From Thermoplasmata archaeon (GTDB lineage: Archaea > Thermoplasmatota > Thermoplasmata > Lutacidiplasmatales > UBA184): a stretch of 64,000 bases of DNA. The stretch is taken from positions 44,316 through 108,315 of the forward strand of contig DATJWA010000016.1 in NCBI GenBank assembly GCA_035501555.1. Direction: 5' to 3'. Position 1 is the stretch's first letter. Every line of letters begins with the position of its first letter. A program made the translations under genes and the position numbers. This document shows, one piece after another, positions 10,219 to 42,843 of this stretch. The notes under the pieces were generated by a model. The model was given only the letters and a program-made list of their open reading frames with translations. It did no database searches and was not told the DNA's origin.

Positions 10219-10240
10219 TGAAGATGGGCGAGGCCTCGTT

Positions 10241-10250: not shown

Positions 10251-10322
10251 CCCTGCCGAAACCGCGTCGTGTCGTGGCTCCGTGCGGCGCCTGGTCCTTG
10301 GGTCGCCCGCATCTCCCGTTCG

Positions 10323-12857: not shown

Positions 12858-12872
12858 GGGCCCGCCGACCGG

Positions 12873-25685: not shown

Positions 25686-26657
25686 TCAGTACAGTATTCC
25701 TGGCCGCGGGGATGGGGTCCGTATGTCCTCGCCCGAGGTCGTCCACACAAAAGGCCCAGGTACGCCTCGGCCCCTGCGGAAGTGCTCTCGGATGGCGTGG
25801 CGGAGCCGTTGTGCGCTGGGCGACTCTCCCGGCCGAACCCGCCGTCGAGAGAACTCCGAGACTAAGCGGTCCACGAGGGTCAGGCCGGCGCGGTCGGAGG
25901 GCAGGTAGTGGAGGTGGAACCTCGGATGCTGAGTGAGCCAGCGCGTCAGTTCCGGCGGGGCGGGTGCGAGACGACTGTCGAGGAGCAGATGGACGTCGAG
26001 CGGCGAGGGGGTCTCCCGCTCGATCACCTGGAGGAAGGCCCGGAACTCTTCGGCCTGGCCCCGGCGACGGAGTTCGTCCAGGGAGCGCAGCCCCGCGCGG
26101 CCCAGCCGGGGGGCCCCCGCCCGCTCGTCCGTGGAGAACGCGATGGCCCGCTCCGGTGGGTTCAGGTAAACCCCCACCATGTCGGTGACCTGGTCCAGGA
26201 AGCCCATCCCCCGCCCGCCCTCGGAGACCGGATGCCGCCGGGAGGGGGGCGCCCCTCTCGCCCTTACGATCCGCTGGACCGTGGACCTGCTCACCCCCGT
26301 CGCCTCGGCGAGACGCCGTACGGACCAGCGCCGGCCAGTCGGGTCCTCTCGGTCGAGGGCCTTGTGGATGACGAGTTCCACCTTCGAGTTTGGAACGGAC
26401 GGCGGCCGCCCCGACCGTGGGGCGTCACGCAGGACACCGGGCGTTCCGTGGAGGAGGAAGCGCCGTCGCCACCGTCCGACGGTCCCGGGGTCGGTGCCCA
26501 GTTCCGCTGCGATCTTTTGGTTAGGGACTCCCTCCGCCGCGCGCAGGACCACCCTCGCCCGCAGGCGCAGCCGGCCCGGGGCCGCGGAGTTCTCCGCGAG
26601 GGCCCGAAGCTCCCTCCATTCCTTCCGGTGGAGTCGGACGGAAGGGGCGACCCGCAC
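25686..26657 (-). CDS. IS630-family transposase
   Basis: N-terminal HTH region (GVPNQKIAAELGTDPGTVGRWRRRF...RRLAEATGVSRSTVQRIV) and a DDE-type C-terminal region (AFSTDE..., HLLLDS..., HPRFHLHYLPSDRAGLTLVDRLVSEF). The GTG start lies about 28 nt downstream of a TATA-like ctttatct inside the right terminal repeat. Confidence 0.8.
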   Translation of the reverse strand: MRVAPSVRLHRKEWRELRALAENSAAPGRLRLRARVVLRAAEGVPNQKIAAELGTDPGTVGRWRRRFLLHGTPGVLRDAPRSGRPPSVPNSKVELVIHKALDREDPTGRRWSVRRLAEATGVSRSTVQRIVRARGAPPSRRHPVSEGGRGMGFLDQVTDMVGVYLNPPERAIAFSTDERAGAPRLGRAGLRSLDELRRRGQAEEFRAFLQVIERETPSPLDVHLLLDSRLAPAPPELTRWLTQHPRFHLHYLPSDRAGLTLVDRLVSEFSRRRVRPGESPSAQRLRHAIREHFRRGRGVPGPFVWTTSGEDIRTPSPRPGILY

Positions 26658-28024: not shown

Positions 28025-28945
28025 GTGTCCCGAGACTCGGTCCTGGAATGGTTGCTCGAGCCGGAACAACCTTCGGTCCAGTACCTCGCGCTGACCCAAC
28101 TTCTCGGCAGGAAGGAGAGCGACTCCGAGGTCAAGGAGGCGAAGAGTAGGATACCCCGAGAGGGCTGGGCCGCGACCATACTCGCAGACCGCAACCCCGC
28201 CGGTTGGTGGGTGCGAGATTGGAGCCACTTCAGCCCGAGCTACACATCCACGACCTGGATGATGGTCGTGCTCTCCGACCTCGGGCTGACCCGGGAGCTC
28301 CCTGAGGTTCGGCACTCGGCCGAGCTGTGGATGCGCATGAAGCCCCTGCGCTACGGTCCGGTGGTGCACCCGTCCGTCGAGCCCCACTACTGCTCGCTCG
28401 GGATGGGGGCGGCGGCGCTGATCCGGCTGGGGTACGGGGACGACCCCCGGGTTCGCCGGTCCCTGGAGTGGATCGTGAAGAAGGGCCATCCTCAAGGAGG
28501 TTGGTCGCACTTCGGGAGCGGACGCAATCTCGACGCGTGGCAGGGGCTGGGTGCGCTCGCGAGCCTTCCTCGGTCGAAGCGCACAGCCGCGATGCAGCGC
28601 AGCGCCGAGCTGGGGGCCGAGTTCTTCCTCGAGCGGGAGCTCCACCGGCAGGGGCCCCGGTACGAGCCCTGGTACCGCTTTCACTACCCGGTATTCTACT
28701 TCTACGACATCCTGGTCGGTTTGGAGATGATGACCGGCCTGGGGTATGGCCAGGACCCGAGGATGCGGTTCGCCCTCTCCCTGCTCGAGAAGAAGCGACG
28801 AACGGATGGGCGCTGGGTCTTGGACTCGGTGCATCCGGACGTCATGCACCCGGCCAAGGACAAGGTGGTCGCGCTCGAGAAAGCCGGCGCCCCGAGCAAG
28901 ATCATCACCCTTCGGGCATTGAAGGTCCTGGCTCGGGCCGGATGA
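28025..28945 (+). CDS. Prenyltransferase/squalene-oxidase-repeat-like (alpha/alpha toroid) protein
   Basis: Repeated helical hairpins with GGW-type motifs (NPAGWWV, HPQGGWSHF, TDGRWVL). The family call is tentative. Confidence 0.5.
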   Translation: MSRDSVLEWLLEPEQPSVQYLALTQLLGRKESDSEVKEAKSRIPREGWAATILADRNPAGWWVRDWSHFSPSYTSTTWMMVVLSDLGLTRELPEVRHSAELWMRMKPLRYGPVVHPSVEPHYCSLGMGAAALIRLGYGDDPRVRRSLEWIVKKGHPQGGWSHFGSGRNLDAWQGLGALASLPRSKRTAAMQRSAELGAEFFLERELHRQGPRYEPWYRFHYPVFYFYDILVGLEMMTGLGYGQDPRMRFALSLLEKKRRTDGRWVLDSVHPDVMHPAKDKVVALEKAGAPSKIITLRALKVLARAG

Positions 28946-29026: not shown

Positions 29027-31015
29027 GTGCGTCCCCGCGGCGCCGTGACGCGCCGCCTGGCCGCCATCATGTTCACCGACCTCGTCGGTTTCACGAGGCT
29101 GGGCCAGCGAGACGAGGAGGCCGCGCTGCGCCTGCGCCGAGAGCACCAGGTGCTCCTTCGCCCGATCTTTGCCCGATTCGCAGGCCGCGAGGTGAAGACG
29201 CTGGGGGACGGCTTCCTGGTCGAGTTTGCGAGCGCGGTCGAATCGGTCCGATGCGCCGTAGAGATCCAACGGGCGATCGGGATGCGGAACGCGTCGGTGG
29301 CCCCGGACGACATGCTCCAGCTGCGGATCGGCCTGCACCTCGGAGACGTGGTCGAGGAGGAGGGCGACGTGGTCGGGGACGCCGTCAACGTCGCCTCCCG
29401 GATCGAGCCCCTCGCCGACCCCGGGGGGATCTACCTCACGGCCCCGATCTACGAGCAAGTCCGTAACAAGCTCCCGATCCTCATCGAGAGGGTCGGTCCC
29501 CGGAACCTCAAGAACGTCCAGGAACCCGTCGATATCTACCGGGTCGCCGTTGGGGGCGCACGAGCGACCTCGCCTCCCCATCTCGCCCCAACCTCGTCGA
29601 ACCTCCGCATTGCGGTGCTTCCACTGGCCAATCTCAGCGCCCTGGCGGAGGACGAATTCTTTGCGGACGGCCTGACGGACGAGCTGATCTCGAGGACGGC
29701 CCAGGTACCCCAGGTCCGGGTGATCGCGCGGACGTCGGTCCAGCGCTACAAGGGCTCGTCGAAGTCGATCCGCGAGGTCGGTGAGGAACTGGACGTCCGA
29801 GTCGCGCTCGAGGGAAGCATCCGCAAGTCCGGCAACCGAGTCCGCATTGCGGTCCAGCTGGTGGACGTGCGCTCGGAGGCCCACATCTGGTCCATGCGGT
29901 ACGACCGCTCGTTCGACGATATCTTCGAGATCCAGGACGACATCGCAAGCAACATCGCGCGCTCCATCGCGGCGCACCTCACTGGACCGAGTCCCGAGGC
30001 TCCTGCCCCGCCCCCCTCGGCCACACCGGACACGGCGGACATGGAGGCCTACTCGCTGTTCCTCCACGGACGCAAGCTGCTCGGCGAGAGGGGCTCGGTG
30101 GAGTCGATCCGCACCGCGCTCTCGCTCTTCGAAGGCGCGGTCGCCCGGGACCCGAGGTTCGCGCGGGCCCGGGTCGGTGTCGCCGAGACCCTGCTCTGGC
30201 TCGAAGGCGAGGGTGGGACTCCCTTCCAGGACGCCGAGGACCGGGCCGCCCGCGAGCTCCGCACCGCGCTCGAGATCAACGACGGGATCGCCGAGGCCCA
30301 CTCGGTCCTCGCGGGACTGCACATCGGGGCCGACCGACCCGCCGAGTGCGAACGCGAGGCCCGACGCGCGATGGAGCTGAACCCGAGCCTTGCCGACCCG
30401 TACCGCTGGTTGGCCCAGCTCGCCGCCGGGGACCACCGCATCGACGAGGCGGTCCGGCTCCTGGAAGCGGCCCGGAAGGTGGACCCCGACGACATCAACG
30501 TCCTCGCCTTCCTCGGTCGTGCGCTGTGGTATGCCGGGCGGGAGGAGGAGGCCCTCGCCTTCTGGGAGGCGACGAAGTCGCGCATCCGCTTTCGGACGAA
30601 CGCAAACCTGACCGAGTACTACCTCGGAAAGGGCGACCTCGCGAAGGCCGAGGAGTCATTCCGCGAGATGGAGCGGGTCCGACCGGCGAGCCCGTGGACG
30701 CTGACGTACCGCGGCTTCCTTGCGGCCCGCCAGGGGGACCCCGCAACGGCCCGACGGATGATCGAGACGCTCGAGGGGCGCGCGAAGCAGGGCGAGATGG
30801 TCGCCTTCCACATCGGGTTCGTGCACTTCGCTCTCGGCGAGATGGACGGATTCGTCGCGGGCATGGAGGGGGCCTTACGTCACCATGCGCTGCCGCTCCT
30901 CGAGCTGCTCTATTCCCCGCTGCTCGCGGCCGGTCGGGCGGACCCTCGGATCCAAGACATTTTCCGAAGGCAGGTCGAGCTCCAGCACGCCTCGGGACCG
31001 AAGGATTCGGTCTAG
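29027..31015 (+). CDS. Class III adenylate/guanylate cyclase fused to a TolB-N-like segment and TPR repeats
   Basis: Cyclase core: AIMFTDLVGFT, VKTLGDGFLVEF, IGLHLGDVV, GDAVNVASRIE. This is followed by IAVLPLANLSALAEDEFFADGLTDELI and C-terminal TPR-like helices. The start may be the in-frame GTG at 29045, given a weak TATA-like gacaaatgag near 29008. Confidence 0.85.
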   Translation: MRPRGAVTRRLAAIMFTDLVGFTRLGQRDEEAALRLRREHQVLLRPIFARFAGREVKTLGDGFLVEFASAVESVRCAVEIQRAIGMRNASVAPDDMLQLRIGLHLGDVVEEEGDVVGDAVNVASRIEPLADPGGIYLTAPIYEQVRNKLPILIERVGPRNLKNVQEPVDIYRVAVGGARATSPPHLAPTSSNLRIAVLPLANLSALAEDEFFADGLTDELISRTAQVPQVRVIARTSVQRYKGSSKSIREVGEELDVRVALEGSIRKSGNRVRIAVQLVDVRSEAHIWSMRYDRSFDDIFEIQDDIASNIARSIAAHLTGPSPEAPAPPPSATPDTADMEAYSLFLHGRKLLGERGSVESIRTALSLFEGAVARDPRFARARVGVAETLLWLEGEGGTPFQDAEDRAARELRTALEINDGIAEAHSVLAGLHIGADRPAECEREARRAMELNPSLADPYRWLAQLAAGDHRIDEAVRLLEAARKVDPDDINVLAFLGRALWYAGREEEALAFWEATKSRIRFRTNANLTEYYLGKGDLAKAEESFREMERVRPASPWTLTYRGFLAARQGDPATARRMIETLEGRAKQGEMVAFHIGFVHFALGEMDGFVAGMEGALRHHALPLLELLYSPLLAAGRADPRIQDIFRRQVELQHASGPKDSV

Positions 31016-31496
31016 GCCGACAATCCATAGACTGGGCCAACCCTGGGGGCCGCACCGCCAGTTGGCCCGACGGGTGGCGGCGCGACCGACCTGGTGTACG
31101 TCAGGGCGGGGGCCAATTCGCGAGGCAGCGGCCCCATGGTAAGGCTATCGCGCGACGTTGTCGAGCGCAAGACACCGAAGCATTGAAGGGTGACCGGTTT
31201 ATCGACCGCCGCCATGACGGCGAGCTTAACCTGCGCCTGCGGAGCTTCGTTCCCGACCCAAGCCCAGCTCGACGAGCACGCTGCGACCTGCGCGGTTTCG
31301 CGGGACCCCGGCGGAGACCCCTCGGCCGAGGGGTAAGACCCGCTCCGTCGCTCTCCGGTCACTTCCGAGGAAACCGGAGGCCGTTCAAGTCCCCCGGTCG
31401 AGCCGGCGGACGGCCTTCGCTGCGCTCCGCGTAGGCGCCCGACCCGCTCGAGGTCGCACGTGGGGACTGCCGGTCCACGATCTTGAGCCGGACGTG

Positions 31497-32789
31497 CTAG
31501 CTGAGGGCAGCCTTCCAGAACGAGGGCACCCGCGGCGTGAATCCCACCGAGTCAGCTCCAAGGAACGCCGCGAGGCGATCGAGCTCCTCTCGGATCTCGG
31601 TGGCGACCCCCCGTGCCGTCGGGGCGTCCGTCTCCGCGAAGAGCGCGAGGACCTGGAGCCGTCGCTTTTCCTCGTCCAGGGTTGCGTCCATTCGTCCGAT
31701 GAACTCCTCCCCGCGTAGAATGGGAAGCACCCACATCCCGAAGCGACGCTTCTCCTTCGGGAGAAACTGCTCGCGGACGTAGTCGAAGTTGAACAACCGT
31801 TTGCCCCGAGCCTGGCTGCAGATCATGTTGTCGAACGGGGGAAGTACGGAGACCCGGGGCGAGAACCTCTCCCTGCTCAGGTCGTCGAGCAGGGCCACGT
31901 CGTCCGCCTGGACAAAGCACTCCTCCTGGCCGCGCAGCCCCTCGATCTCCACCCGGTAGATTCGAGACTCCGCCACCAGGCGCTCCAGGGTCGATTGGAT
32001 GTCGTGATAGCAGCCCCGAATGAAGTAGTACTTGACCTCCCTCGCCGTCGCCACCCCGAGCCCCCGCAGAGCCCGCTGGGCGGCCTCCGAGTCGGCCTCC
32101 TCTTCGGAGAGCACCTTCCGGCTGACCCACGACGGAAGGCAGGCCTCGGGCAGTCCCCAGAGGTTCTGGTTCCCCTCGTGACCCACGACCATCACTCGAC
32201 CGGACATGAGCAGGTGCCAGAGCATCTCGGACACCGCGCTCGAGGGCTCCCAATCTCCGGCGGCCCTCTTGGTCCGGACGTGGTCCTTGAACTGGTTCAG
32301 CTGCAACGGACCCCCCCGCAGGTCAGCAAGGACCCGCTTTCGAAGCTCTCCGTGCTTGGCCAGGAACGCTCGCGCGCCGGCGCGCTGCGACCCCCACGAG
32401 TCGGAGAGGGACTCGGGATACCGTCGCATCAGGGAGGCGTAGAGAGGGTAGTCCTCGGTCGCGACGACGCTGGCGAAGGGGATCCAATGCTGGAGGAGTC
32501 GCCGGTCGGTCCACAGCAGCCGATCCAGGTCGGCCAGCCGGAACGACCCGACCCGCGCCCAGAGAGAGAGTACGTGGGAGGGTGCGACCACGCTGACCGG
32601 ATCCCACTGCACGTACGGCAAGTCGCGAACGGTCTCCACGATACGCTCGGCAGTGGCTCGAGCCGGGCGCCTACCCGCGAGATGCTGCTTGGTGACCGCG
32701 AGGCGTCGAGCCGTTCGGAGGGAGGTACGAACCGGAGCCGAGGTCATCGCCCCCTGCCGACTGTCTCGGCCCCTAAGTAGTAGTTGCAT
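31497..32789 (-). CDS. Winged-helix DNA glycosylase-like protein (YcaQ/AlkZ family, DUF1006)
   Basis: The N-terminal TKQHLAGRRP...VETVRDLPYVQWDPVSVVAPSHVLSLWARV and the overall ~430-aa length match YcaQ-type winged-helix proteins. Confidence 0.75.
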   Translation of the reverse strand: MQLLLRGRDSRQGAMTSAPVRTSLRTARRLAVTKQHLAGRRPARATAERIVETVRDLPYVQWDPVSVVAPSHVLSLWARVGSFRLADLDRLLWTDRRLLQHWIPFASVVATEDYPLYASLMRRYPESLSDSWGSQRAGARAFLAKHGELRKRVLADLRGGPLQLNQFKDHVRTKRAAGDWEPSSAVSEMLWHLLMSGRVMVVGHEGNQNLWGLPEACLPSWVSRKVLSEEEADSEAAQRALRGLGVATAREVKYYFIRGCYHDIQSTLERLVAESRIYRVEIEGLRGQEECFVQADDVALLDDLSRERFSPRVSVLPPFDNMICSQARGKRLFNFDYVREQFLPKEKRRFGMWVLPILRGEEFIGRMDATLDEEKRRLQVLALFAETDAPTARGVATEIREELDRLAAFLGADSVGFTPRVPSFWKAALS

Positions 32790-33159: not shown

Positions 33160-34218
33160 ATGGATGACATTGACCTCGACGTTCTGAGGTGGATGTATCC
33201 GGGAGGCGTCTGGTCGCCCTGGGGAACCGATCCCCGAATCACCATCGCCGATATCGCCTCCCACGTCGGCCTGACTCGGACGGCCGTGTGGGCCCGGCTT
33301 TGCAAGTGGCGTAAGGTCGAGTTCTGGGACGGTTTCGAGACCCAAGTGAACCCCCGGATCTTCGGAGCCAGTGTGTCGATGGTGTCGTTCCACGTCGAGG
33401 ATTCCGCGCAAGGCTGGGAACTGCTGGACCGGACCGGCGCGATTCAGGGTGTGATGTGGGCGAGCCTCCTCTCCGGCTACTCGCTCGCCGCCCGGAACGT
33501 GACCTATGTATTGGTGACGATGTTGGCCGACACACGGGCCGACCAAGTGCGGCGCATGCGAGCCCTCCGCCGGTTGTCGCCATCGGGGGTCGTGGACGGG
33601 CCCGTCACGACCGAGCCCGTCCCGTGCTCCCGGTCGATGACCCCCCTGGATTGGCGGATCCTCTCCGCAATGGTCGCCCATCCGAATGCATCAGCGGCCC
33701 GACTCGCGTGCGATGTCGGGGTCTCTCTCAAAACCCTGGACCATCACCGATCCCTGCTCATTGACGACGGGGTGGTCTGCTCCACACCAAGGCTCGACTG
33801 GTCCAAGATCGGTTGTGTCGCACTCACCTTCTTTTGCCGGTCCCCCGAAGACGTGGATGTAACTGTCCGCGCGCTCGAAAGCCGTCTCCCCCACTCGATC
33901 CCGGTTTCGTTCCAGGGCCTTAACGGCCACGATTTCAAGGCCCCGAAGTGCTTCTGCTACTTGGTCCCGGCCCACTCGCCGCACGCGGTGCCTAGCCTCG
34001 TGCACGACCTCTCGCGGCTCCCCGGGGTCACTTCCGTGTTGCCCGAGCTGTGGGGGGCCCGGTGCGGGTTCACGGCTTGGGCCACGTCACGAATCGCCCA
34101 ACGTTTGTGCCCCCCAGTGACCGTGATGGCGGCCACCCCCGCGAGCGCAGTGGGTCCTGGAAGCGGAGGGCCGGGTCGCGGGGTTCGGGAAGAGCGCCCC
34201 GCGCTCGTGCCTGCCTAG
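33160..34218 (+). CDS. Transcriptional regulator with two Lrp/AsnC-type winged-HTH modules
   Basis: DLDVLRWMYP...ITIADIASHVGLTRTAVWARLCKW and LDWRILSAMVAHPNASAARLACDVGVSLKTLDHHRSLLIDDG are two HTH_AsnC-like units. Confidence 0.6.
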   Translation: MDDIDLDVLRWMYPGGVWSPWGTDPRITIADIASHVGLTRTAVWARLCKWRKVEFWDGFETQVNPRIFGASVSMVSFHVEDSAQGWELLDRTGAIQGVMWASLLSGYSLAARNVTYVLVTMLADTRADQVRRMRALRRLSPSGVVDGPVTTEPVPCSRSMTPLDWRILSAMVAHPNASAARLACDVGVSLKTLDHHRSLLIDDGVVCSTPRLDWSKIGCVALTFFCRSPEDVDVTVRALESRLPHSIPVSFQGLNGHDFKAPKCFCYLVPAHSPHAVPSLVHDLSRLPGVTSVLPELWGARCGFTAWATSRIAQRLCPPVTVMAATPASAVGPGSGGPGRGVREERPALVPA

Positions 34219-34454
34219 GCCGCGTTCTGCAACGGCCGTCGGGTCGGATACGAATTTCGCCCGCCCGCGGCGAGTCGTGCCCCGCCGAATCGCTCCACGG
34301 CGAAGACCCGATACGCGACTTCCGAATCGTTGCGTGTCGCTGAACAAGCGCTCTACTAGCCCGAGGGCGTTCTCCGGTTGAGAAGGTGCTCCGGGTAGCC
34401 ACGTGCTTCGGGGGCCTTCCCGAACTCGGGATCGGTGCGGGAAGAGGAAGAACC

Positions 34455-36113
34455 ATGAGCGAAGGAAGAGGCGCGGAATTCGGTGGAGATTCCTGGCTAG
34501 GTCGAGAGAGAAACCACGGTCGGCGGCGCTCGCGACGACTTGCACCGGCTGTGATCGGGATCTGCCTGGTGCTGATACTCGCGACCGCGCTTACGTTGGC
34601 GCTGGCACCGGGAGCTCGGGCGTCACCGACGTCACTCGGCTCAAGCGTCGTGAAGGTTCCTTGCGGGGGCAGCATCCAAGCCGCCATCAACGCGGCGCAT
34701 CCTGGGAGCACGCTCGCCCTCGCCCCGTGCACCTACGTCCAGCAGTTGACGGTCGACAAGTCCATCAACATCGTGGGCGCCGGGGCGGGGAAGACGATCA
34801 TCCAGAGTCCGGCGACTCTCGCCCCGGACGCATTTGGGAATCCGTGGACCATCGAGCTCGGTAGCGCTGCCACGGTTACCCTCTCGGGGTTCACCCTGGT
34901 CGTGACTCTCCAGTGCATCCAGGTCTCGGGGCTTTTCCCAGCCACCGGCCTGCTTGGCTACGCGGGCGGCGGGATCGGAGTCGGCGGCAGCGCAGTCCTG
35001 AACCTCCAGTCCGCGGTGGTCACCACTGCCGGGGCAACGACGGAGGGAGGCTCGTGCCCGAGTGGGCCCGGTTTCATGACCTACGGTACGGGGGTTGATT
35101 TCGGCCTGGACTATCTGACGGTCGGTAAGCCCGCCGCGAACCAGCTCGTCGGCTTCGGGACGGTCTCCGGAGTGACGTTCTCCGGATTCGGGTATGGCGG
35201 ACCGGCCATTGCGGTTGGCGGCGGAGCGAACTCGCCCGCGGGCAGTTACGCGCTGATTTCGGACAACCGCATATCGACGGCCGGAACCACGCTGCCCCTC
35301 GAAACCTGCCCCTGTGCCGCGGGCATCGCCGTCGGGAGCGGAGGGAACGCTAGCTCGGCAAAGATCATACAAAACGCTCTGGGGGTGGTGCCACTGCAAA
35401 CCACCGGTTTCCCTATCGTACTATCGTTCGGAAGCTACGCGTACATCGCTCAGAATTCCATCACGGGCGGTGGCTGGGGGGATGGGATCACGGTGGCTCT
35501 GTCCAGCTGGGCGACGATCACCGGTAATTCGATTGTCGGTACGGGCGCGACCGACTTTTACATCGGAATTTTCCTGCTGGGCGCCAGTGGTCTATCGACG
35601 ATCACGTTCAACTCGGTCACCGGGCCCGTGACCGGCTACGACATCGCGCTGAGCGAGAGCAGCGCACTGGTCGAGTTCAACTCAGTCGGCCAGTTCAGTT
35701 GCACATACGACGCGTCCCTGGTGGCCGCGGGGCTCTGCGGTCCGGACTTTTTGACCCAGTACCAGTTCAACGGAATCTACGACGCGTCCGATCCGGGTCT
35801 CGGAACCACGATCGCGGGCAACATCGTCTTCGACTCTGATGCCGGGATCGCGCTACTGGAGGGATGCTCGGGGTGCGTGGTGAAGGGCAACACCCTGCTG
35901 AACAGCTTCGACTACGGGCTCTGGGGGGTCGATGGGAGCTATGGCTTCTCCCAGAACTTGGTGGTGGGTGGAGCCTATGGCGTTGCCGCGACCGCATATT
36001 CCGTCAACACGACAGTGGTGCTAGCCCACGTGGCGATCGTCGGCCCGTCTGTCGCCCCGTTCTACACCGAGGTCGACTTCACCGGGGGCACAGCAACCAT
36101 CAGTGGAACGTAG
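34455..36113 (+). CDS. Secreted right-handed beta-helix repeat protein (NosD/pectate-lyase-like fold)
   Basis: I start it at ATG 34455 (MSEGRGAEF...). It has a basic stretch plus an anchor (LAPAVIGICLVLILATALTLALAPGARA). GSIQAAINAAHPGSTLALAPCTY is followed by many G/I/V-x-N/T/S beta-helix coils. Confidence 0.7.
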   Translation: MSEGRGAEFGGDSWLGRERNHGRRRSRRLAPAVIGICLVLILATALTLALAPGARASPTSLGSSVVKVPCGGSIQAAINAAHPGSTLALAPCTYVQQLTVDKSINIVGAGAGKTIIQSPATLAPDAFGNPWTIELGSAATVTLSGFTLVVTLQCIQVSGLFPATGLLGYAGGGIGVGGSAVLNLQSAVVTTAGATTEGGSCPSGPGFMTYGTGVDFGLDYLTVGKPAANQLVGFGTVSGVTFSGFGYGGPAIAVGGGANSPAGSYALISDNRISTAGTTLPLETCPCAAGIAVGSGGNASSAKIIQNALGVVPLQTTGFPIVLSFGSYAYIAQNSITGGGWGDGITVALSSWATITGNSIVGTGATDFYIGIFLLGASGLSTITFNSVTGPVTGYDIALSESSALVEFNSVGQFSCTYDASLVAAGLCGPDFLTQYQFNGIYDASDPGLGTTIAGNIVFDSDAGIALLEGCSGCVVKGNTLLNSFDYGLWGVDGSYGFSQNLVVGGAYGVAATAYSVNTTVVLAHVAIVGPSVAPFYTEVDFTGGTATISGT

Positions 36114-36253
36114 TCGGACACTCGATCGAGGACGATCCGGTTCCGGGGCTCGCCGAAGCCCCGGAACTCCCACGAGGAGTTGCTCAGGGGGAGCTCTCGG
36201 CGATGTCGTTGCGCGCTCGGCCGTCCCGGGATTAGGCTGAAGAGTCGAGGAAA

Positions 36254-36388
36254 TCGCCCGTGCTGGGAGGCGCCCAATTAACTAGGCATTTAGAATTCGC
36301 TTTGCCGTCAGTGGATGCATTTGGCGAAACGAGTTTCGCGTTCGGGAGCCCCTGCTCCCATTGACCTCGCCAGCGGGTCTCTCTTCCC
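36254..36388. repeat. R1: ~135-bp conserved element beginning with a copy of the tRNA-Arg 3' end
   Basis: 36254-36268 (tcgcccgtgctggga) is identical to 42694-42708 in the tRNA gene. The remainder aligns with R2 and R3 through shared blocks ccgtcagtgga, ttcggga and ctcccattgacctcgccagcgggtctc. Confidence 0.8.
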
Positions 36389-36474
36389 CAGCCAACCCGA
36401 GTCCGGGACCTGTCAACTCTGTCGACCCCGTTTGACGGTCTCTTCTTACGCACTTCTGCCGTTGGCTAGCCGCC

Positions 36475-37233
36475 ATGTGGCCCTCGGCGCTAACCGCCGC
36501 ACTTGGCATCGCCATCGGAGCCATCGTCGTTCTGATCCCCTTGGCCGTGCCTTCGTTCCAAGGGCTAGGCGCGGCATCCTCGCCCGGGGGGCCTCCGGTC
36601 GGGCTCGCCCCGGCTCCCCAGTCGCTACACCCACTGAACGCCACCGACTGCGGGTTGCTGAGCTCGTCGTACTTCGCGGGCACCGAGTCGTCGTTCGGCT
36701 GGCCCTCCAGCTACGCCAATGACACTGAGATCATCTGGGCGAAACTTTGCAACGACACTTCCTTCGAGTCGCTCCTCGCCGAGTGGGGAGGTTGGTACTG
36801 GATCCCGCCCGTTACGGCCAACGGAACTACGACCCCTGGCTACTGGATCGCGTCGAACCTCAGCATGCCCATCGAGGAGAGCGGGCCGCCATCCGCGTGG
36901 GGGAACTGGACGTACTTCACCGTGACTTGGTTGTCTTGGGCTAGCATTCCACCAAACGTCACCTCGACCTGCGGGGGCCCCCCGTGCCTCTGGAGCGAGG
37001 TCTGGGTGGCAAGCCTACCCGGTACCAGCTACACCGGTCCGTACCTCACGATCTCTTACTCATTCTCTGCTGGCGGCCCGCCCCCGTCCCACTCCTCCCC
37101 CGCACCCGTGAGCTCCCTCTGGGGTCTAGCGATTGCCGCGTGGGTTGGCCTTCTAGCCGGGGGCGGTCTCACCGCCGCGATGGCCATCCTCGTAGCTGTC
37201 CGCGTTCGTACGACCCGGCCCCCACCGCCGTAG
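36475..37233 (+). CDS. Hypothetical cell-surface protein with N-terminal signal/anchor and C-terminal TM
   Basis: 252 aa. MWPSALTAALGIAIGAIVVLIPLAV, a W/N/T-rich ectodomain with NxS/T sites, and a C-terminal helix LWGLAIAAWVGLLAGGGLTAAMAILVAV followed by RVRTTR. Confidence 0.55.
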   Translation: MWPSALTAALGIAIGAIVVLIPLAVPSFQGLGAASSPGGPPVGLAPAPQSLHPLNATDCGLLSSSYFAGTESSFGWPSSYANDTEIIWAKLCNDTSFESLLAEWGGWYWIPPVTANGTTTPGYWIASNLSMPIEESGPPSAWGNWTYFTVTWLSWASIPPNVTSTCGGPPCLWSEVWVASLPGTSYTGPYLTISYSFSAGGPPPSHSSPAPVSSLWGLAIAAWVGLLAGGGLTAAMAILVAVRVRTTRPPPP

Positions 37234-37426
37234 GGCATCTCACGACAGGAGAAGGGTTGGCCAAGTCGGGACTCGTCGCCGCTGGGTCCGGGCGGGACTC
37301 TCTGGAAGCGTTTCGAACCCATCCCCCTCAGGGCACTCCTCTTGAGCCATCAGATCCGCCAGAGGATGCGTTCTGGTCTAGAAGGGTTCGGACTAACGAC
37401 TTCCGAGCCTTGCAGCTCGCGAACGC

Positions 37427-37449
37427 GACTCGCCCGCGCTGGGATTCGA
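37427..37449. repeat. Rx: isolated 23-nt copy of the tRNA-Arg 3' end (att-like fragment)
   Basis: gactcgcccgcgctgggattcga matches 42691-42713 at 22 of 23 positions. It covers the 3' acceptor strand, the T-stem strand and part of the T-loop. It lies in a 400-nt non-coding gap. Confidence 0.7.
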
Positions 37450-37631
37450 GCAACTACCTATTCGAATCCACAGTCCGATGGGGACATGGGACCCATGCTC
37501 CGCGGGTAAGGCCGAATTCGCCGTCTTCCAACGTTTCCCATGGCGTCGATGAGGAAGTCGGTCGCTCCTCCCCTGCGGAGTGGGTCGCACGTCCTGACAG
37601 CCGACGCGCTTCGGATCGTGGATCGGGCGAC

Positions 37632-39080
37632 CTAGCGACGAGCGATTCGCAGGATTGCCTCGATAGATGTATCGACATCCTCCTCGGTCGTCGCCCACGA
37701 GCTCACGCTGATGCGCATGGCGGTGGTCCCGTGCCAGACGGTTGAACCGGCCCAGAGCGTTCCCTCGTTCTGAACTTCGGTAACCACTCGAAGAGTCCGG
37801 GCGTCGTCCCCAAAGGAGACCAAGACCTGATTCAGCACGACATCGTTGAGGATGGAGAAACCGGCCGCACGAAGTCGGGTAGCAAATCTCTGGGCGAACC
37901 CACAAGTGCGCTCGACAAGGGCCGCCAGCCCCGTGCGGCCGAGCGAACGAAGCCCAGCCCAGCAGGCAATCCCTCGCGCACGTCGCGACATTTCGGGAAC
38001 GGCATCCATCGGCTCACTCGAATTCGTCCCGGCGAGGTAGGCCGCCGCGGGAGTCGACATCGCGGCGCGGAGGGGGTGCGGCTCTGGAACGAAGGCGATG
38101 CCGCAATCGTAGGGAACATTCAGCCACTTGTGACAGTCGGTCGCCCAGGAGTCGGCTCGTTCGGTTCCATCGGCGAGCGAACGCAGCCGGGGGGAAGCCC
38201 GCGCCCAGAGCCCAAAGGCACCGTCAACGTGGACCCATGCACCGGCGTTGTGGGCTAAGTCGCATACCTCGCCGACCGGATCAAAGGCCCCCGAGTTGAC
38301 GTTCCCAGCTTGAGTGCACACGATCGTGGGTCCGAGCAACGGGGGGATCCGGTCGGCTCTCATGCGGCCCTGCGCGTCGACCGGGACGCGTACCAGGCCG
38401 TCCAAGGCGAATCCTAGAATCGAGAGGGCCTTGAGGACCGAGACATGGACCTCTTCGCCAACCACGACGGTGACTGGCGGAGCCGCCTGGAATCCCTGAC
38501 GGCGTACGTCCCATCCCGCCTTCGACAGCACGGCCTGACGGGCGGATCCTAGGCAGGTCAGGTTGGCCATGGTGTCGCCCGTGACGAGCGCCCCCCGACA
38601 GCCCACCGGTAGGCCGAAGATCTCACGGACCCACTCGACCGAGATCTGCTCGAGACGTGCTGCGACGGGGGACATCACCGTCAGTGCACCATTTTGGTCC
38701 CACGTCGAGGTCAACCAATCTGCGGCCAGTGCCGCAGGCAGCGCGCTCCCGACGATGAAACCGAAATACCTCCCCCCGGCCGAAGCGACCGTCGCCGGTG
38801 ACCCGGCGTGATCGAGGAGGGCGATCACGCGAGACGGATCGAGACCGTCCTGCGGAAGTGGAGACGCGAACCGGTCGAGCCCGTCCACCTCTGTAGCTAG
38901 GGGCGCCACGCGTCGTGTCCGGAGGCTCGCAAGGTACTTGGAAGCTGCAGCCGCGGTCTCCATCAGAAGTTCGTCCATCGTCGGGCCTAAGGGTCCTAGA
39001 GAGACCGGCCTTAGAAGGTTACAGTCGCCTGCAGGGGGACTTTCCCCGGCCAGCTCGAAAGGAGCAGTCTGGTCCTCCAC
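37632..39080 (-). CDS. Pyridoxal-phosphate-dependent group II decarboxylase
   Basis: SGAFDPVGEVCDLAHNAGAWVHVDGAFGLW...ADSWATDCHKWLNVPYDCG contains the PLP-lysine motif (HK) of the aspartate-aminotransferase-fold decarboxylases. The start may instead be ATG 38978 (MDELLMETAAAASKYL). Confidence 0.85.
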   Translation of the reverse strand: MEDQTAPFELAGESPPAGDCNLLRPVSLGPLGPTMDELLMETAAAASKYLASLRTRRVAPLATEVDGLDRFASPLPQDGLDPSRVIALLDHAGSPATVASAGGRYFGFIVGSALPAALAADWLTSTWDQNGALTVMSPVAARLEQISVEWVREIFGLPVGCRGALVTGDTMANLTCLGSARQAVLSKAGWDVRRQGFQAAPPVTVVVGEEVHVSVLKALSILGFALDGLVRVPVDAQGRMRADRIPPLLGPTIVCTQAGNVNSGAFDPVGEVCDLAHNAGAWVHVDGAFGLWARASPRLRSLADGTERADSWATDCHKWLNVPYDCGIAFVPEPHPLRAAMSTPAAAYLAGTNSSEPMDAVPEMSRRARGIACWAGLRSLGRTGLAALVERTCGFAQRFATRLRAAGFSILNDVVLNQVLVSFGDDARTLRVVTEVQNEGTLWAGSTVWHGTTAMRISVSSWATTEEDVDTSIEAILRIARR

Positions 39081-39188
39081 CGACGGTTCTGAGTGGAGGT
39101 TCGGGTAGGAGCGTTGGGGGAGCTTCGGTCACGTCCGATTGAGGCGGACGCACTGCCCCGACCATGAGCCTCGCGGCTGGGAGGATGA

Positions 39189-39325
39189 ACTCGCCCGTGC
39201 TGGGAGGCGCCCAAATAATTGGGCACTTAGGATTCGTCTCACCGTCAGTGGATGCGCTTGCAGAAACGTGTTTTGTGCTCGGGGACCCCGGCTCCCATGG
39301 ATCTCTCCGGCGCGCCCGTCTTCCC
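39189..39325. repeat. R2: second copy of the ~135-bp element
   Basis: 39189-39205 (actcgcccgtgctggga) is identical to the tRNA 3' end. The rest aligns with R1 and R3. Confidence 0.8.
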
Positions 39326-39464
39326 AGGATTTGCTGAAGTAGCCCGACACTGATGTCGCCGGCCGCCCATTCGAGAACTGTCGGCCCCGAGCAGTCGCCG
39401 CTTCAGAAGCTGTTAATCGATTCTGGGGCTTACAAGATGTTGTCGACGCGGGAGCGCGATCGGA

Positions 39465-40022
39465 ATGGACCGGCCAGCCTGGCGGTATGCCTTGGCGATC
39501 AGCCTGGCGGTGGTTATCGCCGCTGTCCTGATCCTGGCCCTGTTTGAGCTGGCCCCCAGCGGGTCTCAAGGCCGGGAAGCCTTCAACGGAGTCGCCCTGT
39601 CCATCACCTACGTCGGGAGCTCTGTGGGGATTTACGGTCCGGTTCACCAGAACGCCTGTCTCCAGGAACCCCTTCTGTCGCCCGAGGGACCTCTCGGTCC
39701 CAGCTGCCCGAACAACCTCACGGCGGGAACCGAGTACAACTTCACCATCTTCGAGTTGTTCGTTCCCTATGATCTTGACAGCCACAGCATTTCCGAGATG
39801 TTCCTCAATGTCACCATCTCCTCGCCCATTGCACTCTCTCAAACCGTTTGCGGCGTAGCCCAGTCATCTCCCCCGACGCAGCGATCCTCATTGGGCCTCG
39901 AGCTCCCGCCGGGAATTGGATGCGCGTGGACGATCAGCTTTGTCGCACCCAGCCCCCTGCCGGCGACCCTCCCCGGAGTCGGAATCTGGATGGCCGCTAC
40001 GATGTCGGTTGACGCCGTGTAG
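39465..40022 (+). CDS. Hypothetical signal-anchored secreted protein (185 aa)
   Basis: N-terminal anchor (YALAISLAVVIAAVLILALF) and a beta-rich Cys-containing ectodomain. I recognise no family. Confidence 0.5.
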   Translation: MDRPAWRYALAISLAVVIAAVLILALFELAPSGSQGREAFNGVALSITYVGSSVGIYGPVHQNACLQEPLLSPEGPLGPSCPNNLTAGTEYNFTIFELFVPYDLDSHSISEMFLNVTISSPIALSQTVCGVAQSSPPTQRSSLGLELPPGIGCAWTISFVAPSPLPATLPGVGIWMAATMSVDAV

Positions 40023-40089
40023 TCATTCACTTCGCGGTGGCCGGCCCCAACATGCGAGCGGCCGACGGGGCCATTCGTTCGGCACGCTC

Positions 40090-40275
40090 GTCGCGGTCTG
40101 GTCATCGGTCGCGCAAAACGGGCTCCCGTACCAGAGGGACTCGCCCGCGCTGGGAGGCGCAGAAATAGATGGGCACTTAGGACTCGTTTCACCGTCAGTG
40201 GAGGCGCTTGGCAAAACCAGTTTCGAGTTCGGGAACCCCCGTTCCCATTGACCTCGTCGGCGGGTCTCGCTTCCT
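40090..40275. repeat. R3: third copy of the ~135-bp element, plus ~45 nt of left flank homologous to the flank of the tRNA gene
   Basis: 40134-40155 matches 42687-42708 at 21 of 22 positions. 40090-40133 also aligns with 42645-42686 (ggtcatcggtc.cgc.aaacggg.tcccg). 40156-40275 aligns with R1 and R2. Confidence 0.8.
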
Positions 40276-40362
40276 AAAGTTGAGAACCTCGTGCCTACTG
40301 TCAACTGACCCTCCTACCCTCTCCAGCGATTTTGACTTGTATACCAGTCGCGCTTCTTCTGG

Positions 40363-40899
40363 TTGTTGAAGAATCTCCGACGGCTAGCAGGGATCGTTGC
40401 AATCGCCGCAGTCATCCTCGCGGCGACGTTGGGAGCGTACATTTTAGTGGGACTCCAGCCGGCGCAGCTTCCTCAATGCGCAGCCGGAACTTCCGAAGTT
40501 CTACTGGACGCGCAGCCCATTCAGGCCCCGCCGCTGACCCTGGGTAACCTCACGAACTCATCTCGAGGGTCCAACCATTGGTACAACTTCTCGGTCGAAG
40601 AGGCGACTCCCTGTGCCACGTTGGGTCCTCTGTCGTTCCAGATCGGGTTTCCCTCCGGTGCAAACGCAACGTTGCCCCCCGGGGCGGGGGTTGCGGTCAT
40701 CGTACCTCCCGGATCGGTTGAAGCGGCCTTCACCTTCGGGACAGGATGGTCGTACGGAGCCGGATTTGGTCCAGGCACAGTTGTGACGACCCAGGACGAA
40801 CTCTCGATCTCCTACACCGGTTCTACGCCAGCTTCTCTCGTGGGAGCTTGGCTGATCATCCAGTTTGCCCGAGGCACGGCCGCGACGTCGGTCGCTTAA
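40363..40899 (+). CDS. Hypothetical signal-anchored secreted protein (178 aa)
   Basis: TTG start about 23 nt downstream of a TATA-like ttgtatac (40337-40344). Anchor LAGIVAIAAVILAATLGAYILV and a beta-rich ectodomain with NxS/T sites. Confidence 0.5.
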   Translation: MLKNLRRLAGIVAIAAVILAATLGAYILVGLQPAQLPQCAAGTSEVLLDAQPIQAPPLTLGNLTNSSRGSNHWYNFSVEEATPCATLGPLSFQIGFPSGANATLPPGAGVAVIVPPGSVEAAFTFGTGWSYGAGFGPGTVVTTQDELSISYTGSTPASLVGAWLIIQFARGTAATSVA

Positions 40900-41139
40900 C
40901 GAGTCCCTCATCTGATGCAGTCTCCTCGCCTGGGCTAATGATCCAGCGCGAGGGAGTGCACCCGACGGGGGCCAGGCGAACGCTCGGTCGGGCCGTAGAA
41001 GCCCTATGGACGGAGTATCGCCTTGCACCTAACCCGCCCCGGCCCCTACGGAAGGTGGGCGGGGCCGGTCTCCCGACCCGGCCAAGAAATCGTCTGTGGT
41101 CCGATTTCTCCGAAGCCGTTTTCTGACAGAGATATGGTA

Positions 41140-41197
41140 CTGGATGCCCACACTAGTGGGTGGTATCCCCTGCTCCCATTGACCTCGCCGGCGAGCC
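41140..41197. repeat. R4: truncated copy keeping the distal block of the element
   Basis: cccctgctcccattgacctcgccggcgag (41167-41195) closely matches 36349-36377 of R1. The tRNA-like core is missing. Confidence 0.6.
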
Positions 41198-41332
41198 TAT
41201 CGTGCATGGGGTCGCGGGACCGGCTTTCCCATGATATATTCAATCGAGCTGTCCTTCCAGGACATGGGTCCCGGTGACGACTGACGCCTCTTTCGGAGTC
41301 GTCACTTTGGGCGCGCTCCCAAAGATGGACGC

Positions 41333-41644
41333 ATGAGAACTCGAAGAGCGATCCTTCCACGCCGTCGCTTCGGTATCGGGATGACAATCCTGACGGTCCT
41401 CGGTATCGCCCTCCTGTTAGTCGCGCTTTTGATTCCGCCGGTTGTGGTGGTCTCTTGGCCTTGTCAATCGCACTCGTGCCCGCCTTTCAACTCCCCTTCT
41501 GAACAGACTTCGGTCTCCCCCTGGGCCTTGCTTGCGTGGTACTCTGGACTGGTTCTCGTAATAGTGGGCGCGGTCGGTCTCCTATGGTTCGGATGGCGTC
41601 GATACCGGGAATCGAAGAGCCCGCGCGGACCACCCCCTGCCTGA
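41333..41644 (+). CDS. Hypothetical small two-helix membrane protein (103 aa)
   Basis: A basic N-terminus, two hydrophobic helices (IGMTILTVLGIALLLVALLI and LLAWYSGLVLVIVGAVGLLWF) and a Cys-containing loop. Confidence 0.4.
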   Translation: MRTRRAILPRRRFGIGMTILTVLGIALLLVALLIPPVVVVSWPCQSHSCPPFNSPSEQTSVSPWALLAWYSGLVLVIVGAVGLLWFGWRRYRESKSPRGPPPA

Positions 41645-41675
41645 CTCGCTCCCACTGACCTCACGGCGGGTCTCC
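41643..41675. repeat. R5: short derivative of the element
   Basis: gactcgc followed directly by tcccactgacctcacggcgggtctcc. This looks like the core start joined to the distal block. Confidence 0.45.
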
Positions 41676-41768
41676 TTCTGTGAAGTTGGGAATCGGGTCC
41701 TGCGCGCTCATCGCGGTCCCGTCATCGACCTTGGGGGGCCGGCATCGAGCCCGCGGGTCGGTGGACAA

Positions 41769-42566
41769 TCAGAGTTCCGGGCTAGCGGACCGAATGATCA
41801 GCGTCACGTTCTGGTCTCCATCCCAGGCCACTCCAACCCGAAGATTGTTGGACATGGTTTCCTCGCACATGATCGGAAGGCTCACGCCGGGAGGGCGGAT
41901 GCCGCAATTATACGCCGGAGGTCCCCCGAGTGCCGACTGCAGCAAGGTACTGCCATTCGCGCCAACCGCGACGATGTCGAAGCCGGATCCCGCGGGGTTC
42001 GGCGGGAACTCGCTAAAGTGGAAGGTGATTCCCTGAAACGTCACGTTACAGAACCCCAGCTGGCAGTCCGGCTTTCTATCACCTGGGGGAAACGTGACGG
42101 TCGAAAGAGCGTACTCCGGCTGGGGCCAGGCCGCCCGCAGCAGGACCGTATCGGAGTGAGCCGAGCTGGAGAGCCAAGTTACGCCAAAAGTCTTGTCAGC
42201 CGCGGTGAAGTTGCTGAGGCCGCCGCATGCTCGGCAGCCTGGTGGGACTGCCCACGATACGTTGTTGGTGTCAATCAGTGCGAGTTCCATCCCGCTGGGC
42301 CCGACAGCAGCGCCCGTGAGCCAGTTGGTGCCTACGATGTACTCCGGCCAGAGGTGGAACAGGATGCCACCGAAGCTGAAATTCGACTCGGGGCCGGAGA
42401 GGTTGCCGCCATTGACTGGGATGCGTACGACCTCCGAAGCATAGTTAACGGCTGAACTGGTCGGAGCAGTGGGATGGTTCGCGATGGCAACTAGCCCAAC
42501 GGTCGCAACGACGACCAGAGCCGCCATCACGATGGCCGAGAGGGCGACCCCCGAAGGCTCCCACAT
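41769..42566 (-). CDS. Hypothetical signal-anchored secreted protein (265 aa), Cys-rich
   Basis: Anchor VALSAIVMAALVVVATVGLVAIA and an ectodomain with several Cys pairs and NxS/T sites. I recognise no family. Confidence 0.55.
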   Translation of the reverse strand: MWEPSGVALSAIVMAALVVVATVGLVAIANHPTAPTSSAVNYASEVVRIPVNGGNLSGPESNFSFGGILFHLWPEYIVGTNWLTGAAVGPSGMELALIDTNNVSWAVPPGCRACGGLSNFTAADKTFGVTWLSSSAHSDTVLLRAAWPQPEYALSTVTFPPGDRKPDCQLGFCNVTFQGITFHFSEFPPNPAGSGFDIVAVGANGSTLLQSALGGPPAYNCGIRPPGVSLPIMCEETMSNNLRVGVAWDGDQNVTLIIRSASPEL

Positions 42567-42694
42567 GGAAACAAACAGGCCCCAGAAGCGTATGCGTCTT
42601 CCTCTGAGTCGAACGACGGGGGCCTCGTGTGGACGGCCCGATCAGCGCGGTCGGTCATCGGTCACGCGAAACGGGTTCCCGCGTTGGAGGGACT

Positions 42695-42802
42695 CGCCCG
42701 TGCTGGGATTCGAACCCAGGTCTGAGGCTCCGCAGGCCTCTAGGATAATCCATTGCAGCGGACCGGGGGAGGACCCCGGTTCCGTAGCTACCCCACACGG
42801 GC
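42695..42802 (-). tRNA. tRNA-Arg (anticodon GCG) with a ~31-35-nt insertion in the D-arm region (probable non-canonical intron); no encoded CCA
   Basis: The reverse complement reads GCCCGTG-TG-GGGT-AGC...[hairpin ACCGGGG-TCCTC-CCCCGGT]...CAATGGATT-ATCC-TA-GAGGC-CTGCGGA-GCCTC-AGAC-CTGGG-TTCGAAT-CCCAG-CACGGGC-G. It has a 7-bp acceptor stem, a 5-bp anticodon stem with a CU-GCG-GA loop, and a canonical T-arm. At 108 nt it is about 30 nt longer than a normal tRNA. Confidence 0.75.
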
Positions 42803-42843
42803 AATCGTTCGGGAGCGGTCCCGGCGCCGCCGAGCGGAGTCGC

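Follow-up and report, generated by a model that had tools for sequence, protein, structure and literature searches.

How did a series of unrelated small genes come to lie one after another beside a single tRNA gene, and what made the repeats that separate them? The question is raised by an islet of ~6.4 kb in a 64-kb stretch of a Thermoplasmata archaeon genome (contig DATJWA010000016.1; hereafter the window), where pieces of the 3' end of a tRNA-Arg(GCG) gene recur as direct repeats. The source is an uncultured, metagenome-assembled genome, and the window belongs to a metagenome contig of 189 kb. We consider it probable that positions 36254-42693 are an additive genomic island at tRNA-Arg(GCG) that was built and reshuffled by conservative site-specific recombination and is now without an integrase. 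That integration took place is something we infer, because no integrase, excision product or circular form was seen; the same holds for the making of the junctions by a recombinase, for the direction and sequence of the events and for any mobility today.

The tRNA-Arg(GCG) gene, correctly named in an earlier sequence-only reading of this DNA, lies on the minus strand at 42694-42803 (ARAGORN with introns allowed) and is the sole tRNA gene of the window. It is 110 nt long, including an intron of ~37 nt in the D-loop region, and forms the intact, attB-like end of the array, with the b1 arm described below as its 3' trailer. A shorter call at 42695-42763 (default ARAGORN, Rfam) is a mis-model that scores 27.9 bits, below the Rfam gathering score of 29. 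The position of the intron is non-canonical, and default ARAGORN misses the gene entirely in four relatives. The gene and its intron hairpin are conserved in six lineages; an intron of ~37 nt was also noted for the relatives L005, L007, L009, L010, L139 and L140, and the hairpin is kept in relatives via changes on both strands (CCGGGG/CCCCGG versus TCCGGG/CCCGGA).

A core of the form TCGCCCG[T/C]GCTGGGA, which corresponds to the 3' strands of the T and acceptor stems, the discriminator and one to eight bases of the trailer, is present in five copies in one orientation (36254, 37430, 39191, 40141 and, in the tRNA, 42694), with no exact copy expected by chance. The sequence-only reading had compared a tRNA-derived 27-mer at 42687-42713 (plus strand) with the rest of the islet, and its coordinates and match counts hold (36254-36268, 15/15; 37427-37449, 22/23; 39189-39205, 17/17; 40134-40155, 21/22). 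The repeats are thus real, but the extent it gave them was too short: they are the cores of longer arms (~135 nt for a, ~56-90 nt for b1), and two core-less remnants have to be added. The 15-mer TCGCCCGYGCTGGGA has five exact matches in the window, all on the plus strand and all between 36.2 and 42.7 kb. Allowing up to two mismatches gives seven matches, a number reached in none of 100 shuffles (mean 1.19), and the two additional ones, at 21801 (one mismatch) and 63713 (two mismatches), fit chance. The former, TCGCCCGCGCCGGGA at 21801-21815 on the plus strand, has the tRNA's orientation and lies 21 kb away with no a or b arm adjoining; one such match is expected by chance.

Could the core simply be a dispersed repeat? 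We searched for it in the 64 kb of the source genome and in ~20 kb per relative, and extra copies occur only 3' of tRNA-Arg, in its orientation and 2.2-6.4 kb from it, with none on the gatD side of the tRNA. Over this range the core is not dispersed, as the sequence-only reading requires. A search of genome contigs with the pattern CGCCCGYGCTGGNNGGCGC gave 120 matches, at chance level and in G+C-rich bacteria, the pattern being too unspecific.

The core copies at 36254, 39191 and 40141 each head an arm of ~135 nt, here called a. This arm starts with GGCGCC and an inverted repeat with an A+T loop, H1 (e.g. GCCCAAATAATTGGGC), followed by the invariant CCGTCAGTGG, the inverted repeats H2 and H3, and the D2 block ATTGACCTCGCCGGCGGGTCTC. 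The a-arm copies are 75-81% identical to one another; among a-type copies the core with the adjoining GGCGCC is 18-21/21 identical and the arms 70-79%. On the other side of the core, the b1 arm (~56-90 nt) is common to the 40134 copy and the tRNA, with 84% identity over 56 nt (40100-40155 versus 42653-42708; z = 16 against shuffles). A search with nhmmer gave no further a-arm copies elsewhere in the window.

Read along the plus strand, junction 1 (36242-36387) consists of a short left flank unlike b1, termed b2 (36242-36253), the core (36254-36268) and a full a-arm copy 1 with H1, H2, H3 and D2 (nhmmer E = 1e-50, family D1). The copy at 36254, taken in the sequence-only reading as the left boundary, is indeed the last recognizable junction, but it is not necessarily the edge of the island since it is joined to an older module made of a beta-helix gene and b2. 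At junction 2 (37427-37469) the identity with the tRNA reaches into the T loop (22/23) and is followed by a hairpin with an 8-bp stem (GGATTCGA...TCGAATCC), and this copy has flanks of its own, unlike those of the others. Junction 3 (39189-39324) is a core (39189-39205, 17/17) with the full a-arm copy 2, and junction 4 (40085-40274) combines b1 (~40085-40133), a core (40134-40155, 21/22) and the full a-arm copy 3 (families D1 and D6). The next two junctions have no core. Junction 5 (41158-41203) retains the right part of an a-arm, the H3 hairpin and D2 (nhmmer E = 2e-6, model positions 101-146; also a pattern match), and a full fourth a-arm at 41060-41203 was rejected, its left half having no significant a-arm similarity. 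Junction 6 (41647-41692) is a right-end remnant, D2, contiguous with the 3' end of the gene for the cargo protein p265 as in the relative L140 (weak nhmmer match; family D8). The series ends with the present tRNA trailer, a b1 arm at 42615-42693 that runs into the core inside the tRNA and is 73-80% identical to L140r 11779-11854. Together these junctions delimit six one-gene units of 0.5-2.9 kb, which carry p252 (plus strand), a pyridoxal 5'-phosphate (PLP)-dependent decarboxylase (minus), p185, p178 and p103 (all plus) and p265 (minus).

One a-arm may hold a trace of something older. The right half of copy 1 (36309-36387, GCGAAACGAGTTTCGCGTTCGGGAGCCCCTGCTCCCATTGACC) resembles the b1 trailer together with the 3' end and T loop of the tRNA (42665-42723, GCGAAACGGGTTCCCGCGTTGGAGGGACTCGCCCGTGCTGGGATTCGAACC), with z = 3.9 and a score reached in none of 500 dinucleotide shuffles. 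The idea that the right half of a-arms in general is a decayed b1 plus tRNA 3' half was dropped, as copy 1 alone is significant and copies 2 and 3 are not. The right half of copy 1 may be an older, nested junction.

What stands beside the tRNA in related genomes? GatD homologs gave five other lineages with the same tRNA-Arg/gatDE arrangement. Among the six lineages homology ends exactly at the 3' end of the tRNA; each 3' flank is different, and the tRNA trailers of the other lineages are unrelated to b1. Three lineages, with 2-10 kb available, have no extra core copies. L007, whose GatD is 71% identical, has two, each made up of its own tRNA trailer, the core CGCCCGTGCTGG and a hairpin with a GGCGCC stem and a TAAT loop, and separately a stretch homologous to the a-arm of the window. 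A metagenome scan with a 45-nt a-arm pattern returned the L007 lineage only; this pattern is strict and missed L140, the closest relative that was informative, which was found via a 75%-identical p265 homolog and is ~20% diverged in DNA throughout.

Given in the orientation of the window, the order in L140 is a helix-turn-helix (HTH) regulator, a beta-helix gene, b2|core|full a-arm, p265 (minus strand), a gene for a 255-aa protein (minus strand), b1|core|a2, a second beta-helix paralog, b2|core|tRNA and gatD. L140 is without 5.3 kb of the window (~36388 to 41648), which hold p252, the decarboxylase, p185, p178 and p103. Its a-arm (ortholog at L140r 9776-9917) passes directly into D2 and then the 3' end of the p265 gene (L140r 9885-10850 versus window 41649-42621, 79% in blastn), and the end points of the difference fall within a 33-nt repeat, the D2 block. 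By the tRNA, L140 has an extra core-bounded module (a2, beta-helix 2, b2), and its tRNA trailer (b2) with the core is 92.6% identical to 36242-36268, at the leftmost junction of the window. Among the cargo genes p265 alone has an L140 ortholog; p252 has a distant homolog there, the 255-aa protein, which is 30% identical. Presence and absence are compared here between lineages ~20% diverged, not between strains. The content of the relatives is accordingly not identical, an outcome on which the sequence-only reading depended: the six lineages diverge at the tRNA 3' end, and where L140 is without the 5.3-kb block it has another module instead. The differences in content between lineages concern whole blocks with repeats at their ends, in agreement with an additive island.

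The strongest argument for site-specific recombination is that left arms (b1, b2 and others) and right arms (a, a2, a' and the tRNA body) are combined around one invariant core. The pairings are b2|a, b''|a'', x|a, b1|a and b1|tRNA in the window, b2|a, b1|a2 and b2|tRNA in L140, and bL|a' twice and bL|tRNA in L007, and in all three lineages the boundaries of homology are sharp on both sides of the 12-15-nt core. Mixed arms with sharp boundaries at the core are the expected product of reciprocal exchange at one fixed site. The internal b1|core|a junctions look as an attP would, but equally as tandem junctions would. The proposal of serial integration at the tRNA 3' end, made from the sequence alone, is thus supported both by the combinatorial arms and by the differing content of the relatives.

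A recombinase might, however, be dispensable. A module of trailer, tRNA 3' end and ~135 nt could have been copied by segmental duplication or unequal crossing-over while the genes between were replaced homologously, the conserved arms anchoring the exchange of foreign DNA and gene conversion from the tRNA keeping the core intact. This would agree with the fact that no recombinase was found in the islet or among the open reading frames (ORFs) tested across the window, and with the age of the copies, which are ~20-25% diverged. The end points of the window/L140 difference in the 33-nt D2 repeat would fit a homologous deletion, and in L140 a beta-helix gene with its downstream stretch and b2|core is present twice (45% amino acid identity), like a duplicated segment. 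Duplication should, on the other hand, copy genes together with arms, and here the arms are 75-81% identical while the genes that follow them have no detectable similarity, which argues that arms and genes were not duplicated together. The combinatorial exchange of arms in three lineages takes place at a core of 12-15 nt, a length on which homologous recombination is inefficient, and all copies are in the tRNA's orientation and on its 3' side. We regard a recombinase-free origin as rather unlikely.

The regular form of the arms raises a different possibility, that the core with the a-arm is not a scar but a functional element, such as a tRNA-like 3' processing or termination signal on the minus strand, a small RNA, or a regulatory leader or protein-binding site common to surface-protein genes, and that its resemblance to the tRNA end reflects this function. 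For four of the five a-arm copies, a plus-strand ORF starts 88-141 nt downstream of the right end. Every non-tRNA right arm in the three lineages starts with a G+C-rich inverted repeat that contains GGCGCC, although the sequences differ, and H1-H3 are 79% paired compared with 24-47% in slid controls. The core is also conserved better than the arms. Against this, the a-arms match no Rfam family and their covariation is not above that of shuffles. In both L140 and L007 the a-arm leads into a minus-strand gene from its 3' end and not into a plus-strand ORF, the fifth a-arm copy of the window abuts the 3' end of p265, and the window contains no a-arm copy outside the islet. Finally, the conservation of the arms equals that of neutral spacers. 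Purifying selection on the a-arm, suggested at first sight by its 80% identity to the L140 ortholog, was dropped on this last ground: noncoding spacers of the window and L140 are 78-83% identical, like the coding sequence. A functional element of this kind appears improbable.

If a recombinase made the junctions, is it encoded nearby? A six-frame Pfam search of 36114-42692 gave a single match, Pyridoxal_deC, and so bears out the claim from sequence inspection that no frame of the islet encodes a recombinase. No Cas1, PolB or transposase is present in any of the six frames of the islet either, no int(N) or int(C) fragments of the Sulfolobus spindle-shaped virus (SSV) type were found in any frame around any junction, and the p185 unit, complete in 950 bp (core at 39189, a-arm, gene, b1, core at 40134), has no room for the halves of an SSV-type integrase. 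Among the ORFs tested across the window there is no Phage_integrase-type (IntI) match. Scans of viral contigs with core-plus-arm and H3-D2 patterns gave no related match, and blastn against phage and plasmid collections returned nothing similar. A single viral match to the tRNA-type core (L142 1847-1865, IMGVR_UViG_3300031259_000021) was rejected: it is a 19-mer at about chance level with unrelated flanks. The virus is G+C-rich, and the 19-mer lies inside its 452-aa tyrosine-integrase ORF, at the 3' end.

These searches also bear on an insertion by a casposon-like element or other transposon. On that reading the 15-nt core would represent a duplicated target site, and terminal inverted repeats would make up the arms. 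The likeness to family 2 casposons lies in the repeat of 14-15 bp and in the tRNA 3' end as target, and tandem arrays of casposons are known (PMC4779613, PMC6563490). The a and b arms show no inverted-repeat relationship (two marginal scores, z ~3, against reverse-complemented b), no frame of the islet encodes Cas1, PolB or a transposase, and the units measure only 0.5-2.9 kb. With the terminal-repeat test and the six-frame search an origin from a casposon or a transposon with terminal inverted repeats is effectively refuted, and we give it almost no weight.

Several observations count against a site-specifically built island, or at least against one that is still active. The a-arm copies have diverged from each other by ~20-25%, as much as the window has from L140, and the noncoding spacers of these two are as similar as their coding sequences (78-83%); the events are therefore old, and the conservation of the arms is no evidence of current function. 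Three public assemblies of the source population have the same content up to their contig ends. The ORFs tested across the window include no integrase, nor do the genes that were called within 10 kb in L140 and L007, and viral, phage and plasmid collections gave no autonomous relative of the units. Two of the genes, the decarboxylase and p265, point the opposite way, and two junctions are without a core. A deletion in L140, through homologous recombination between its a-arm repeats, would account equally well for its difference from the window.

Two side observations concern the assemblies. The NCBI copy of the islet is identical in sequence and differs in its start-codon calls. In addition, contigs of independent assemblies repeatedly end at ~40.4-43.8 kb, near tRNA-Arg and the last units (L002, L004, L133, L134, L138, L139 and L006); for example, L002 ends at 40374 and L004 at 41078, while L133 and L134 begin within gatD and the first base of L138 is 202 nt ahead of it. 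These recurrent ends hint at strain heterogeneity or at repeat-induced breaks.

How, then, would an island built by site-specific recombination have grown? Crossover would take place inside the last 12-15 nt of the tRNA gene (T stem 3' strand and 3' acceptor strand). Circular DNA units with an attP-like site composed of b-arm, core and a-arm would recombine with the tRNA or with an existing core copy and yield flank-core-a...cargo...b-core-tRNA, the tRNA being restored at each insertion and older units being displaced outward. Repeated insertion of related units, with a and b1 arms in common and unrelated cargo, would produce the six single-gene units, and later deletions would have trimmed two junctions to core-less remnants of the a-arm. 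Because neither the island nor the ORFs tested across the window yielded a recombinase, the units would be either fixed relics or non-autonomous, attL/attR-bearing 'cis-mobilizable' units that need an integrase encoded elsewhere. Sites resembling att flank units with no recombination or transfer genes, such as the p185 unit and the p178..p265 block (40134-42687).

Potentially the units could form a working system of integron-like cassettes, that is, one-gene circles with an attP of ~200 nt, inserted by a recombinase in trans into a variable array of surface glycoprotein genes at tRNA-Arg(GCG). The attP would consist of a b arm, the 12-15-nt tRNA-Arg core and an a arm that starts with the GGCGCC hairpin, and the recombinase, encoded elsewhere in the genome or by a virus or plasmid, would insert, excise and shuffle the cassettes. 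We think it unlikely that such a system operates here.

The cargo itself is heterogeneous. The gene for p252 (36475-37233, plus strand) encodes a protein that has a hydrophobic stretch at either end and is rich in N-x-S/T sequons, and is called in public assemblies; the protein has no Pfam match, with 33 homologous clusters at E < 1e-3. The PLP-dependent decarboxylase (37632-39080, minus strand) matches Pfam Pyridoxal_deC (E = 1.7e-39) and is called publicly as 448 aa with a start at 38978; in a comparison with PADLOC and PHROGs it gave weak, fold-level DndA/SspA matches only. The p185 gene (39465-40022, plus strand; also a public call) encodes an N-terminal signal-anchor protein with one homologous cluster only (51% identity), in L135, where no arm or core is nearby. 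An ORF with a TTG start (40363-40899, plus strand) would encode p178, a putative signal-anchor protein, and another (41333-41644, plus strand) p103, a putative membrane protein with two hydrophobic stretches and a weak Pfam DUF6338 match below cut-off. The coding status of these two is uncertain because the public caller skipped both and their third-position G+C bias (GC3) is weak (0.65 and 0.62). The sixth gene (41769-42566, minus strand) encodes p265, a signal-anchor, sequon-rich protein with homologs at 81, 75 and 71% identity.

The small cargo proteins have N-terminal hydrophobic anchors, and the four that are rich in N-x-S/T sequons are presumably surface-exposed. None of the small proteins has a significant Pfam match or any match in PHROGs or PADLOC, and for p265 and p185 the confidence (pLDDT) of AlphaFold models is only 39-40. 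BLASTP found no significant similarity among the cargo proteins, and so the idea of a paralogous gene family was rejected and the earlier impression of unrelated small proteins upheld. The islet is also richer in A+T than its surroundings, as had been noticed from the sequence for its spacers, with a G+C content of 0.63 compared with 0.68 on the far left and 0.72 on the right; GC3 of the islet genes is 0.62-0.80, compared with 0.82-0.96 for nearly all genes outside the island.

To the left, the islet adjoins an older module (33160-36113, plus strand) that consists of a double AsnC-type HTH regulator (33160-34218) and a NosD/beta-helix secreted protein (34386-36113), both identified with Pfam and with GC3 of 0.77-0.80. 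This module ends at the b2-core junction, and the order HTH, beta-helix, b2|core|a is the same in L140. The two NosD/beta-helix paralogs of L140 (6894-8354 and 11173-12723, or L140r 12442-13902 and 8073-9623) are 45% identical. Downstream of both comes a similar stretch and then b2|core, so that the beta-helix gene with b2 behaves like a module end that is repeated. The beta-helix protein of the window has no BLASTP match at E < 1e-3 to either paralog, despite its equal position.

The region farther left is also rearranged among lineages (window 28025-28945, plus strand, and 29027-32789; L140 14427-15398; L007 7628-9574). An SQHop-cyclase-like gene is inverted relative to L140, a guanylate-cyclase/TPR gene and an AlkZ-like gene are absent at the L140 locus, and in L007 a guanylate-cyclase/TPR gene directly adjoins the tRNA in the opposite orientation. 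A stretch of ~24.9-33.1 kb that is absent from L140 includes a 323-aa ORF (25686-26657, minus strand) whose match to IS630-family transposases is confined to their N-terminal HTH half (model positions 2-152 of 299; NCBIfam 95.6 bits, cut-off 100). No other ORF tested in the window is transposase-like, and this one probably encodes a transposase that has been truncated or domesticated. Near the start of the window, a 2219-aa ORF (1750-8409, plus strand) has both a GH57 glycoside hydrolase domain and, at the C terminus, a glucodextranase-type binding module and is flanked by ABC sugar-transporter genes (661-1653 and 8797-10800).

Does the locus belong to a known kind of element? Tandem islands bounded by repeats of a tRNA-like 3' end, some of them integrase-less, are documented (PMC3146451; bioRxiv 10.1101/2020.12.28.424599). 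The ssrA genomic islands of Dehalococcoides are the closest match (PMC3146451). They too lie in tandem downstream of one tRNA-like gene with direct repeats of ~20 bp of its 3' end, have extra conserved nucleotides by the repeat that do not match the gene, and cross over in the T-loop/3' region; their content is strain-specific, and some, without an integration module, have been proposed to be cis-mobilizable by accretion (PMC3146451). They measure ~10-30 kb, however, and mostly have a CcrB-type serine recombinase (dsiB) by attL (PMC3146451), whereas here one-gene units of 0.5-2.9 kb, with no recombinase in 64 kb, occupy a tRNA-Arg target in an archaeal host. In the tycheposon islands of Prochlorococcus, successive integrations at one tRNA likewise displace older elements and leave scattered partial tRNAs and degenerate remnants, and the cargo there consists of niche-adaptive genes (bioRxiv 10.1101/2020.12.28.424599). 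Tycheposons differ in having tyrosine recombinases, replication modules and excision and circles shown by PCR (bioRxiv 10.1101/2020.12.28.424599), none of which was seen here.

Streptococcal cis-mobilizable elements (CIMEs) are likewise units without integrase or transfer genes that are flanked by functional-looking attL/attR sites and form tandem arrays with related elements at a tRNA or another conserved gene (PMC5704250). They derive from integrative and conjugative or integrative and mobilizable elements of the same species, and their mobilization has been shown experimentally (PMC5704250), whereas no parent element is known here. Descriptively the locus is an array of cis-mobilizable-type units. 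Integrated elements of archaea also commonly target the 3' part of tRNA genes, including intron-bearing ones, restore the tRNA and form arrays at one site (PMC8371274, PMC6563490), and in Thaumarchaeota their att sites have a median of 17 bp and go down to 8 bp (PMC6563490). These elements have an integrase by definition, the smallest cryptic one is 2.6 kb (PMC8371274, PMC6563490), and the ends of SSV-type elements bear the int(N) and int(C) halves, of which there are no fragments here. Thermoplasmata are not among the clades that the legend of Figure 12 of PMC8371274 names. Compared with an autonomous tRNA-targeted element, the locus has the tRNA 3' repeats with an intact tRNA and the presence and absence in relatives, and it lacks the integrase.

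A further likeness is to integrons and to clusters of attC sites lacking integron-integrases (CALINs): small, mostly one-gene cassettes, unrelated cargo, sites of ~135 nt rich in inverted repeats and, in CALINs, no adjacent integrase. The differences are that there is no IntI, that the sites are conserved in sequence (75-81%) while attC is conserved mainly in structure, that the core is a tRNA 3' end and that two cassettes are inverted. Neither the R''/L''/L'/R' organization nor a GTTRRRY crossover box was recognized in the a-arms; the best candidate found by eye, CTTAGGA, is two positions off, and the predicted pairing of core and D2 is imperfect and without covariation support. As neither attC sites in the array nor IntI among the ORFs tested across the window were recognized, the locus does not qualify as an integron or CALIN.

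Islands at tRNA genes that are marked by partial-tRNA repeats are a major route of gene gain in bacteria and several archaeal groups, and no such island of Thermoplasmata was found described in the reviews that we read. The present locus is unusual in its very small one-gene units, its long conserved arms, its host group and the lack of a recombinase over 64 kb, and it offers a clean, small example, with different fillings in three lineages and arms swapped at a core of 12-15 nt. If the units are relics, it would be an ordinary decayed island that still marks a recombination hot spot that breaks metagenome assemblies. If they are mobile, they would show that a trans-acting recombinase can vary the surface-protein repertoires of archaea one cassette at a time, and the locus would provide a defined att sequence with which to find that recombinase.

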